A DNA stretch of 64,000 nt, taken from the NCBI RefSeq assembly GCF_053078305.1, contig NZ_CP166879.1. The stretch is one strand, 5' to 3'. A program made the translations under genes and the position numbers. Of this stretch, positions 51,959-52,653 are shown in pieces. Under the pieces are notes generated by a model. The model was not told the DNA's origin. It made no database searches and worked only from the letters and a program-made list of their open reading frames with translations. Each line of letters opens with the position of its first letter. The first letter of the stretch is position 1.

Positions 51959-52029
51959 GTATGTCGTACCTGTTTTTGGAATTCTTTCCGCAATAGTTTC
52001 GTGCAGACTACCTGTAGTACGGGAAGCTG

Positions 52030-52125
52030 CTTAGAACACTATATATAGGGGGTATGTTTGGGATTCACTGCAAGATAGTGTGAAAATGGCCCTCTTGCAA
52101 GTGCATAACTTTGTGGATAACTCAG
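52030..52125 (-). promoter_or_regulatory. nrdAB promoter region with candidate NrdR boxes and a DnaA box
   Basis: acactatatatag (52037..52049) and cactgcaagatagtg (52066..52080) are NrdR-box-like palindromes; tgtggataa (52112..52120) is the reverse complement of the DnaA box TTATCCACA. Confidence 0.55.
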
Positions 52126-52653
52126 GAAGGAAAAAGTGGCTTTCGCGCACCTTAGGTCAGACAAGGTGTCCGGGAAAGTCAATGGGAAGAGAAAAATTTG
52201 TTAAAAATAACTGTTCGGCGATTTCTTGAACGGCAGAATAGGTTGGATAAATTGATATAGATGGTTTATTAATCTTTTTGCTAATGATTGCAAAAATTGA
52301 TCTAAGCACGAGTCATCACATAATCTGATGTATCAGTTGTGGTCAATATATAAGCGAATGTAAGCGATTGTTGATGTCGAAATGGTTGTTTTCTATTCGG
52401 TTATTGTTAAATGCGAAGCCATTTTGTTAATTTACCTTATGTTATAAGAAAATTATTCATTACTTTAATTTAGTTTAAATATAACTGGTATCCCTTAAGG
52501 TTATTAACTTGAATTATGACGCACTGATACTATTCATTAAATAATAACAAAATAGCTATTGCATCGGGTTGGACAATTTACAAAAGAAAGATAACCCATA
52601 TTGTATAATGCGTTTAAATATGCCGTCTTATATAAAATGATGGTCAGATTAAT

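Follow-up and report, generated by a model that had tools for sequence, protein, structure and literature searches.

The spacer between the divergent genes nrdA (minus strand) and yfaL (plus strand) occupies exactly 695 bp, from 51959 to 52653 of the window, the 64-kb stretch of DNA that was analysed. The open reading frames at both flanks confirm the regulatory region of roughly 700 bp that the first-pass annotation had placed here. The spacer is present, at a coverage of at least 80%, in 5423 of the 5426 complete E. coli genomes, and it has the same length and 97% identity in K-12. The K-12 region is the same locus, with the nrdAB promoter, ypaB (b4605) and inputs from NrdR, DnaA, Fis/IciA, H-NS and HusR. 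It differs from the window by point substitutions only, which are concentrated in the 100 bp adjoining yfaL (90% identity), while segments of the nrdA side (51959-52235) are 98-100% identical and contain the NrdR, DnaA and HusR boxes. The yfaL gene of the window is an intact ORF, whereas that of EC1515 is annotated as an "internal stop" pseudogene. To the left of about 45000, the window is not collinear with EC1515.

When only ORFs of 100 aa or more are counted, just one gap in the window is longer than the spacer, and in a near-identical strain annotated by RefSeq no gap is longer. Its description as an unusually long non-coding stretch is correct in length, but RefSeq annotates a small ORF, ypaB, within it. 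The spacer is built of two parts, an nrdA-proximal segment of 277 bp and the remaining 418 bp, with a sharp conservation boundary between them at about 52235. The features of both parts are listed in Table 1.

Table 1. Features of the nrdA-yfaL spacer and its flanking genes, in window coordinates
Feature	Position	Strand	Basis
nrdA, class Ia ribonucleotide reductase alpha subunit (left flank)	49673..51958	-	761-aa ORF; RefSeq annotation, near-identical strains
Conserved nrdAB control region (5' UTR, promoter, upstream activator region)	51959..52235	-	cross-lineage conservation
NrdR box 2, GTACTACAGGTAGTCT, central AG	52005..52020	-	sequence; 15 bp from box 1; fits PMC12176259
NrdR box 1, CCCCTATATATAGTGT	52036..52051	-	2 mismatches to NrdR consensus
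NrdR "box 0", TCACACTATCTTGCAG, over -10	52068..52083	-	sequence; PMC12176259
nrdA promoter -10 hexamer TATCTT	52072..52077	-	sequence; conserved CACTATCTTG block in E-type promoters
ypaB, annotated small ORF, 47 aa, opposite strand over nrdA promoter	52086..52229	+	RefSeq annotation
nrdA promoter -35 hexamer TTGCAA	52095..52100	-	sequence; 17-bp spacer to -10
DnaA box TTATGCACT, one mismatch	52100..52108	-	motif scan
DnaA box TTATCCACA, perfect	52112..52120	-	motif scan
HusR (YnfL) box, CACTTTTTCCTTCCTG on minus strand	52123..52138	.	sequence from Table 1 of PMC12844172; placed by eye
HusR (YnfL) palindromic box CAGACAAGGTGTCCGG	52158..52173	.	motif scan; PMC12844172
Conserved distal block: invariant TTGAC (52178-52182), A/T run, GTTCAAGAAATCGCCGAAC inverted repeat	52178..52235	-	invariant columns, 16-genus alignment
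AT-rich yfaL-linked upstream DNA, GC 0.29; K-12 counterpart H-NS-bound "promoter island"	52236..52653	+	composition, allele comparison, PMC3661553
Two predicted RNA hairpins, marginal, probably chance	52289..52408	+	z-score scan, both strands
Sigma-70 promoter-like site TTGATC-16-CATAAT towards yfaL	52297..52324	+	scan; predicted bend near 52294
Proximal promoter-like elements: TTTACA 52577-52582, TATTGT 52599-52604, perfect TATAAT 52604-52609	52577..52609	+	sequence, scan
Counterpart of K-12 GadEWX-study ChIP-exo peaks P16/P17 assigned to yfaL	52638..52699	.	supplementary table, PMC4918353
yfaL/ehaC, AIDA-I-type autotransporter adhesin gene (right flank)	52654..56400	+	intact 1248-aa ORF; RefSeq annotation, near-identical strains

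The NrdR-box-like palindromes and the DnaA box that had been noticed near nrdA were located as three NrdR-type palindromes and two DnaA boxes, one of which is perfect. NrdR boxes 0, 1 and 2 of nrdAB have been described, with box 0 as a weak or non-functional site (PMC12176259). The window has this layout, in which the 16-bp boxes 1 and 2 are separated by a 15-bp linker and box 0 lies at the -10 hexamer; the binding itself is taken from the K-12 literature. The core of box 1 is present in most of the Enterobacterales loci sampled. The sigma-70 promoter formed by TTGCAA and TATCTT would fire leftward into a leader of about 107 nt. From the position of these hexamers, nrdA transcription would start near 52065-52068; the nrdAB start of K-12 lies about 110 nt upstream of the ATG. 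At the -35 position, CACTTGCAA is kept in Escherichia, Serratia, Dickeya and Limnobaculum, and CACTTGCCA is found in Yersinia and Rahnella. Both DnaA boxes abut the -35 hexamer. Regulation of nrdAB by DnaA has been described as a DnaA switch (PMC8203912), and DnaA bound to these two boxes would tune nrdA expression to its own nucleotide state. The HusR boxes and the conserved distal block may provide further activator input, the distal block being a candidate Fis/IciA-type activator region if the factors named in the titles of published work act there.

The conservation of the spacer, proposed earlier as a check, extends over the nrdA side up to about 52235, while the AT-rich side diverges between yfaL allele types. 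Across E. coli lineages and E. albertii, the identity of 51959-52235 is 92-100%, except for the 5' UTR (51959-52066), which is 83% identical to that of E. albertii. Against a Pseudocitrobacter metagenome-assembled genome (MAG), the identity is 77-88%, the same level as in the nrdA coding sequence, and the segment can be aligned across Enterobacterales. The S-type nrdAB promoter of Salmonella, Citrobacter, Klebsiella, Enterobacter and Pantoea has NrdR box 1, the distal TTGAC block and the position upstream of nrdA in common with that of the window, but its DnaA boxes form an inverted pair downstream of NrdR box 1 and its immediate upstream neighbour is ubiG. [quoted passage not shown] Nearly all other Enterobacteriaceae and Erwiniaceae genomes with a typed upstream region have the inverted pair downstream of NrdR box 1.

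Plasmids contain 235 matches to 52082-52196. These matches are not new, since they represent the long-annotated "nrdA-like promoter" of P1/P7-type phage-plasmids, which has a DnaA box and is located upstream of hot (GenBank M95666; NC_005856 misc_feature). The P1/P7 copy of 115-130 bp, equivalent to about 52082-52211 of the window, covers the -35 hexamer, both DnaA boxes and upstream DNA, with an identity of 83% in P1 and 95% in P7. Unlike the chromosomal promoter, it is phage-borne and has neither NrdR boxes nor a leader.

The remaining part of the spacer has a very different composition. The GC content is 0.503 in the window, 0.34 in the whole spacer and 0.289 in 52201-52653, with values down to 0.22-0.23 at about 52400-52550. 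The segment 52201-52653 is the lowest-GC stretch of 453 bp in the window, longer than the 300 bp of strongly AT-rich DNA that mark an H-NS-silenced promoter region. The yfaL-proximal DNA is thus as extreme as had been claimed, although the AT-rich part extends over about 420 bp rather than 500 bp. A-tracts occur at 4.4 per 100 bp, just as often as the base composition predicts. No 10-11 bp periodicity, as would be expected of the phased A/T tracts proposed in the first-pass annotation, is seen in global or local Fourier tests. The AA/TT power at 10-11.25 bp has z < 0.4 and is reached by 401 of 500 shuffles, and the best local 126-bp window lies below the shuffle mean and is exceeded by 292 of 300 shuffles. 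In a wedge model, the mean predicted curvature is average and equal to that of shuffles; the one local predicted bend, near 52294, is matched by 18 of 300 shuffles (p about 0.06). The H-NS motif TCGATAAATT is not enriched, with one match at up to one mismatch (52244) in the spacer.

The K-12 literature nevertheless agrees with the view that this is an adhesin promoter of the H-NS-silenced type, although not on the basis of A-tract phasing; phased A-tracts should not be cited as the cause of H-NS binding at this locus. The K-12 counterpart is the promoter island 2342143_534 (yfaL/ypaB), bound by H-NS "according to all studies" in three ChIP-chip data sets (Panyukov & Ozoline 2013, PMC3661553), and coordinate conversion places it at about 52169-52702 of the window. 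This evidence for H-NS binding, like the report of low productive transcription, is transferred from K-12, in which the AT-rich part is 90-97% identical. As in promoter islands generally, the DNA is strongly AT-rich and sigma-70-like sites are in excess; the neighbouring gene is flagged as foreign, and H-NS binds the K-12 counterpart. The excess is modest, 7 promoter-like sites in the AT-rich part against 3.1 +/- 1.8 expected from shuffles, which is a different measure from the PlatProm island criterion of at least 8 predicted starts per 100 bp. The spacer also carries an HNS flag in the RpoD gSELEX table, where the hexamers TTGATC/CATAAT are listed for yfaL (PMC3946193).

The history of the AT-rich part is linked to yfaL. 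In most of the 80 Enterobacterales loci, ubiG lies directly before nrdA with a spacer of about 350-600 bp, and only four (two Escherichia genomes, the Pseudocitrobacter MAG and strain RIT691) have yfaL between the two genes. The AT-rich DNA is thus associated with a lineage-restricted gene that interrupts a widespread ubiG-nrdA adjacency. Between ubiG and yfaL lies a REP-like spacer without homology to that of the Salmonella type. The GC content of yfaL itself, 0.52, is near average, so the "foreign island" signal comes from synteny and the upstream DNA, not from the composition of the gene. Since the DNA upstream of the RIT691 yfaL homologue is much less AT-rich (GC 0.44), AT-richness is not obligatory at a yfaL locus. 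Between yfaL allele types, the AT-rich side is 44-59% identical, below the yfaL coding sequence (72%), while it is 81-91% identical to B2 strains; it co-varies with the yfaL allele and not with nrdA.

Promoter-like sites towards yfaL are found in both the distal and the proximal regions of the AT-rich part. The proximal TATAAT is retained in K-12, is CATAAT in B2 strains and is not conserved in the other yfaL allele type. The position given for P16/P17 in Table 1 presumes that nrdA starts at 2,342,887 in U00096.2. The biofilm phenotypes of YfaL were obtained with a constitutive promoter inserted upstream of the gene (PMC3764049). The regulatory region of agn43 (flu), the model for the control of E. 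coli autotransporter adhesins, is similarly placed upstream of an AIDA-I-type autotransporter, and its expression, normally off or heterogeneous, can be counted as a likeness to yfaL. In agn43, however, a Dam/OxyR phase switch uses three GATC sites, whereas the nrdA-yfaL spacer has a single GATC (52299). With no GATC cluster and no simple-sequence repeats in the spacer, where the only tandem repeat is a 2.1-copy 10-mer, there is no signature of phase variation of the Dam/OxyR, Dam/Lrp or slipped-strand kind.

The suggestion that the spacer could hide small ORFs or a small RNA has to be weighed for both parts. The AT-rich part of the window has six ORFs that reach 20 aa, and all of them are broken in K-12 or in a B2 strain. 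The one annotated small ORF, ypaB, is on the nrdA side. It could be a genuine small-protein gene whose divergent transcription begins inside the nrdA leader and is induced by replication stress or by entry into stationary phase. RefSeq annotates it in K-12 and most strains, and the ORF is intact in the window, K-12, a genome labelled E. coli SCPM-O-B-8794 and the Pseudocitrobacter MAG, with residue 2 being Ala in one and Thr in the other of the window and K-12. RT-qPCR shows that HusR is needed for a rise of its mRNA in stationary phase, which exceeds 5-fold (PMC12844172), and it is induced 9.6-fold by AZT (PMC11228462). Since this RNA has been measured, some plus-strand transcription may exist, but the measurements may report upstream or antisense RNA of the nrdA region. 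A fitness defect is seen with dCas9 guides on either strand of ypaB, which the authors attribute to blockage of nrdA, as ypaB contains its promoter (10.1101/308916). The sequence comparisons argue against a protein. The start codon is CTG instead of ATG in B2-type strains, which have no ypaB annotation, and codon 18 is a stop in E. albertii. The 5-6 substitutions within E. coli are all nonsynonymous, and the pN/pS of 0.88 obtained with Pseudocitrobacter is no different from the values in the two off-frames, whose range includes it (Nei-Gojobori, three frames); neither a maintained ORF nor a deficit of nonsynonymous changes is thus found. No Shine-Dalgarno-like sequence was seen upstream, there is no family in NCBIfam or Pfam, and a literature search found no Ribo-seq or tagging data for ypaB. 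Homologues are restricted to E. coli/Shigella, one partial entry labelled Salmonella and the P1/P7 promoter copies, whose ypaB-like ORFs (UpfO, Upf91.6) diverge or truncate after the DnaA-box codons. The role of this DNA as nrdA promoter already constrains it. Most likely, ypaB is a by-product ORF of conserved promoter DNA, and a functional gene is very unlikely.

It is highly improbable that the TTGATC-16-CATAAT promoter gives rise to a small RNA, or to a long and structured leader of yfaL, with the hairpins at 52350-52404. This promoter is the one assigned to yfaL by gSELEX with RNA polymerase holoenzyme (PMC3946193), and our scan finds the same site. The plus strand of 52289-52408 folds better than shuffles, with z from -2.9 to -3.0, but as the best of 40 windows this score is borderline after correction. 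The hairpins have no compensatory changes, two of their pairs are broken in K-12 or B2 strains, and the first overlaps the promoter and would thus be transcribed only in part. Our scan of both strands finds no intrinsic terminator, the sequence of 52236-52653 shows no conservation in the other yfaL allele type, and abortive oligomers are reported to be the only products of promoter islands as a class (PMC3661553). No Rfam match emerges even at E values up to 10 beyond four chance hits (snoRNAs, S15 leader, IS605 RNA; E 1-10, far below gathering scores) in a permissive scan of 51500-53100.

Two other readings concern the relation of the AT-rich DNA to nrdA. It is unlikely that this part acts mainly on nrdA, as distal cis-regulatory DNA with further Fis sites and a cell-cycle "AT-rich" element, rather than as a yfaL silencer. 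According to published titles, the cell-cycle control of nrd involves an AT-rich upstream sequence, which is required, and an inverted repeat of 45 bp, repression of nrdAB by H-NS is reported (PMC12176259), and a Fis-consensus match is found at 52341-52355 in a motif scan. However, nrdA-linked conservation ends at about 52235, most genera sampled have no more than a spacer of about 350-600 bp between ubiG and nrdA, and the distal DNA follows the yfaL allele. The conserved 277 bp themselves include an A/T-rich block and an inverted repeat (52191-52235), which could be the published elements. The other reading, in which the nrdA core promoter was gained or kept as a single unit together with yfaL and the AT-rich segment, and in which the spacer is the scar of a regulatory-module exchange, is quite unlikely. 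The two lineages with exceptional placement of the DnaA boxes, Escherichia and the Pseudocitrobacter MAG, both have yfaL and its AT-rich DNA at the nrdA site, and a P1-like phage with the same promoter core is a conceivable vehicle. In a test for horizontal transfer of the nrdA region, the nrdA coding identity is flat towards the promoter, with no gradient, and the E. coli gene is about equidistant (86-88%) from those of Pseudocitrobacter, Citrobacter, Salmonella, Enterobacter, Klebsiella and RIT691. If such an exchange did occur, horizontal transfer would have re-wired how E. coli controls an essential replication gene.

The spacer is very probably a composite control region for two divergent genes, in which pieces of different history meet: the ancestral control region of nrdAB and AT-rich, yfaL-linked DNA that H-NS would bind. 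Anatomy, motifs, composition, the conservation boundary and synteny come from the analysis here, while occupancy by H-NS, NrdR, DnaA and HusR comes from the K-12 literature; we infer that this occupancy is valid for the strain of the window, as we do the position of the nrdA start and the factor at the distal block. The AT-rich piece, 71% A+T, would have been inserted between ubiG and nrdA and would travel with yfaL. With its many promoter-like hexamers it would be a preferred substrate of H-NS, whose filaments may keep yfaL cryptic under laboratory conditions, and H-NS on this piece may also add to the reported repression of nrdAB.

The spacer is ordinary and of low interest, and is already described in the E. 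coli literature and RefSeq, because it joins a known nrdA control region to a stretch upstream of yfaL that is H-NS-bound in K-12, and no hidden RNA or conserved small-protein gene was found in it. The locus, the NrdR, DnaA and HusR sites, the annotation of ypaB and the H-NS-bound promoter island are all known. The division at about 52235 splits the spacer cleanly into a part owned by nrdA and a part owned by yfaL. The placement of the DnaA boxes in the Escherichia nrdA promoter, which would set it apart from its closest relatives, could be of interest for work on how DnaA couples dNTP supply to replication.

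The spacer between nrdA, the gene for the class Ia ribonucleotide reductase α subunit, and yfaL (ehaC), the gene for an AIDA-I-type autotransporter adhesin, is real. Since the nrdA ORF borders it at 51958 and yfaL starts at 52654, it occupies exactly 51959-52653, as placed by the first-pass annotation, whose main interpretation holds. When 895 bp centred on the spacer serve as query, all but three of 5426 complete E. coli genomes (5423) give a match with a coverage of at least 80%, and K-12 is 97% identical. The GC content is 0.34 overall, 0.44 in 51959-52200 and 0.29 in 52201-52653, dipping to 0.22-0.23 near 52400-52550; 52201-52653 is the lowest-GC 453-bp stretch in the 64-kb window (GC 0.50). 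Among the gaps of the window, the spacer ranks second in length when ORFs are called naively, and first when a near-identical strain's RefSeq annotation is used. It is thus unusually long, as first described, but not free of annotation, because RefSeq places ypaB inside it.

Features of the nrdA-yfaL region and related loci; nrdA control elements are ordered along the minus strand, from nrdA outward
Feature	Position	Strand	Remarks
nrdA	49673..51958	-	ORF; E. coli chromosome segment
nrdA-yfaL spacer	51959-52653		695 bp; limits set by the two flanking ORFs
NrdR box 2	52005-52020	-	GTACTACAGGTAGTCT; central AG non-canonical, as reported
NrdR box 1	52036-52051	-	CCCCTATATATAGTGT; 15 bp from box 2
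NrdR "box 0"	52068-52083	-	overlaps -10
nrdA -10 hexamer TATCTT	52072-52077	-	17-bp spacer to -35
nrdA -35 hexamer TTGCAA	52095-52100	-	
DnaA box TTATGCACT	52100-52108	-	abuts -35
DnaA box TTATCCACA	52112-52120	-	with the 52100-52108 box, abuts -35
HusR (YnfL) boxes (two)	52123-52138; 52158-52173		
Distal block	52178-52235	-	invariant TTGAC, A/T run, short inverted repeat
ypaB	52086-52229	+	47 aa; RefSeq annotation
TTGATC-16-CATAAT promoter-like site	52297-52324	+	same as gSELEX yfaL site
Perfect TATAAT	52604-52609		45 bp before yfaL ATG
yfaL/ehaC	52654..56400	+	ORF
368-aa ORF	43516..44622	-	within accessory segment 43300-45040
Promoter-core copies	L003 3001-3115; L087 1501-1615; L088 476-590		positions in comparison loci

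Pairwise comparisons with K-12, a B2 strain, E. albertii, the E. coli-labelled SCPM-O-B-8794 (probably a separate species-level Escherichia lineage) and a Pseudocitrobacter MAG reveal a sharp conservation boundary near 52235. Most nrdA-side segments are 92-100% identical within Escherichia, the exception being the 5′ UTR segment 51959-52066 (83% to E. albertii), and 77-88% identical to Pseudocitrobacter, the same level as the nrdA coding sequence. Beyond the boundary, identity to B2 strains is 81-91%; between the two yfaL allele types, the distal 418 bp reach 44-59%, less than the yfaL coding sequence with its 72%. The AT-rich DNA upstream of one allele can essentially not be aligned with that upstream of the other; the two are similar in length and GC content. 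Since the distal 418 bp diverge with the yfaL allele while the nrdA side is conserved, the AT-rich DNA belongs evolutionarily to yfaL, not to nrdA. Synteny agrees with this reading. In most of 80 Enterobacterales loci collected by way of the NrdA N-terminus, nrdA follows ubiG directly, in the same orientation, after some 350-600 bp; the only loci with yfaL between them are those of two Escherichia genomes, the Pseudocitrobacter MAG and strain RIT691. The yfaL-ubiG spacer (56401-56540) carries REP/BIME-like palindromic units, GCCTGATGCGACGCTT...GCCGCATCCGGCA, and these 140 bp before ubiG have nothing in common with the Salmonella-type ubiG-nrdA spacer. The yfaL insertion has its far junction at this REP-like spacer.

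The yfaL alleles are themselves strongly divergent (window 52654-53153): over the N-terminal 766 residues, the type of the window and K-12 shares only 73% identity with the E. albertii/SCPM-O-B-8794 type (L007, L008). Within the spacer, variation is highest at 52551-52653, directly upstream of the yfaL start codon, and this holds even among close relatives; against K-12, the last ~100 bp are 90% identical, the yfaL coding sequence 96% and the nrdA side 98-100%. In the window, as in K-12, the yfaL ORF is intact, with 1248 aa and the end ...MTVKW, while the public strain that matches best, EC1515 (NZ_CP021844.1), has it annotated as a pseudogene with an internal stop; the window is thus not EC1515, and annotation transferred from there needs checking. 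An accessory low-GC (0.30-0.34) segment at 43300-45040, between glpQ and a LysR-family regulator, carries a 368-aa ORF that matches no Pfam family; 1052 of the 5426 complete E. coli genomes have it, under the label "hypothetical protein", and the EC1515 annotation of the interval lacks it.

The NrdR-box-like palindromes and DnaA box noted at first reading are located in the sequence and already known from K-12, with whose published elements the nrdA side agrees. There, boxes 1 and 2 form the true NrdR site and box 0 is a weak binder (PMC12176259), nrdAB expression is switched by DnaA-ATP/DnaA-ADP via the DnaA boxes (PMC8203912), and HusR gSELEX peaks and box sequences fall between ypaB and nrdA (PMC12844172). 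The nrdA transcription start would lie near 52065-52068. About 115 bp upstream of it, the TTGAC pentamer (52178-52182, minus strand) is invariant in all 16 aligned Enterobacteriaceae sequences, two of them MAGs, and has no obvious -10 partner; the distal block that holds it is a candidate target of a Fis/IciA-type activator. In B2-type strains (e.g. G749, ST131 MB1159), the nrdA 5′ leader has a 13-bp deletion relative to window 51959-52000, adjoining the ribosome-binding region on its upstream side, which explains most of the 14 bp by which their spacer is shorter.

Within 400 bp upstream of nrdA, Enterobacterales promoters (loci L007-L086; window 52067-52125) have two architectures. In Escherichia, the Pseudocitrobacter MAG, Yersinia, Serratia, Dickeya, Symbiopectobacterium, Rahnella and Limnobaculum, a DnaA box lies 70-80 bp upstream of NrdR box 1, adjoining -35; in Salmonella, Citrobacter, Klebsiella, Enterobacter, Kluyvera, Pantoea, Erwinia and others, an inverted DnaA-box pair lies just downstream of box 1. 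Escherichia thus shares the Yersinia/Serratia-type placement, unlike its closest relatives. Exchange or retention of the core promoter together with the yfaL insertion is nevertheless quite unlikely, because nrdA coding identity has no gradient pointing to transfer and no sign of a recent one. Copies of the promoter core (52082-52211), 115-130 bp long and with both DnaA boxes, also stand upstream of hot, which encodes a theta-subunit homologue, in P1/P7-type phages and at 235 sites in plasmid records of E. coli (identity 83% in P1, 95% in P7, ~78% in the examined plasmid); GenBank M95666 and NC_005856 already annotate the phage copy as "nrdA-like promoter" and "dnaA box".

The AT-rich part corresponds in K-12 to one of 78 "promoter islands" (2342143_534, yfaL/ypaB), flagged as foreign-gene-associated and H-NS-bound "according to all studies", i.e. 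three ChIP-chip data sets (PMC3661553). In the gSELEX catalogue of RpoD holoenzyme, the promoter entered for yfaL is TTGATC-16-CATAAT, and the spacer bears an HNS flag (PMC3946193). Promoter-like sites are in modest excess (7, against 3.1 ± 1.8 expected); the TATAAT before yfaL is retained in K-12 and reads CATAAT in B2 strains; the other allele type lacks it. Such sites are candidates for the yfaL promoter that would act after silencing lifts. ChIP-exo peaks assigned to yfaL in a GadEWX study convert to about 52638-52699, and K-12 YfaL biofilm phenotypes were obtained with a constitutive promoter inserted upstream of yfaL (PMC3764049). The evidence, all from K-12 and sequence, supports the proposed H-NS-type silencing of the yfaL side as probable. 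The phased A/T tracts proposed with it fail: global AA/TT Fourier power at 10-11.25 bp (z < 0.4) is reached by 401 of 500 shuffles, the best local window is exceeded by 292 of 300, and A-tract density is as composition predicts. Curvature computed with a wedge model is average, with a single predicted bend near 52294, coinciding with the -35 of the gSELEX promoter and equalled by 18 of 300 shuffles. The H-NS consensus TCGATAAATT occurs once at up to one mismatch; AT-richness as such is the best explanation of H-NS binding here.

The suggestion of hidden genes is not borne out. For a small RNA, Rfam gives no match, neither strand has an intrinsic terminator, and the sequence is not conserved between yfaL allele types; the sole structure signal, two hairpins in 52289-52408 (plus strand; z ~ -3), is the best among 40 windows, lacks covariation and lies partly over the promoter. 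All six ORFs of at least 20 aa in the AT-rich part are broken in K-12 or B2 strains. That ypaB is a real protein gene, as its annotation would have it, is very unlikely. Guides for dCas9 on ypaB cause a fitness defect on both strands, which their authors relate to the nrdA promoter that ypaB contains (10.1101/308916), and reported ypaB RNA changes may reflect nrdA-region transcription. The start codon is CTG in B2 strains, which have no ypaB annotation, E. albertii has a stop at codon 18, the 5-6 substitutions within E. coli are all nonsynonymous, and pN/pS against Pseudocitrobacter (0.88) is no better than in off-frames. No Shine-Dalgarno-like sequence is seen upstream, a family search gives no match, and homologues occur only in E. 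coli, Shigella, one partial Salmonella-labelled entry and the P1/P7 copies of nrdA promoter DNA. ypaB is accordingly rated a by-product ORF.

The anatomy, composition, conservation boundary and synteny of the locus are established here, and the locus itself is a textbook case, already known and documented. By transfer from the K-12 literature, NrdR in its dATP plus ATP or ADP form would repress nrdA from boxes 1 and 2, DnaA would modulate RNA polymerase at -35, and HusR, probably with Fis and IciA, would act further upstream. H-NS, reported also as an nrdAB repressor, would coat the AT-rich island and so keep yfaL cryptic.
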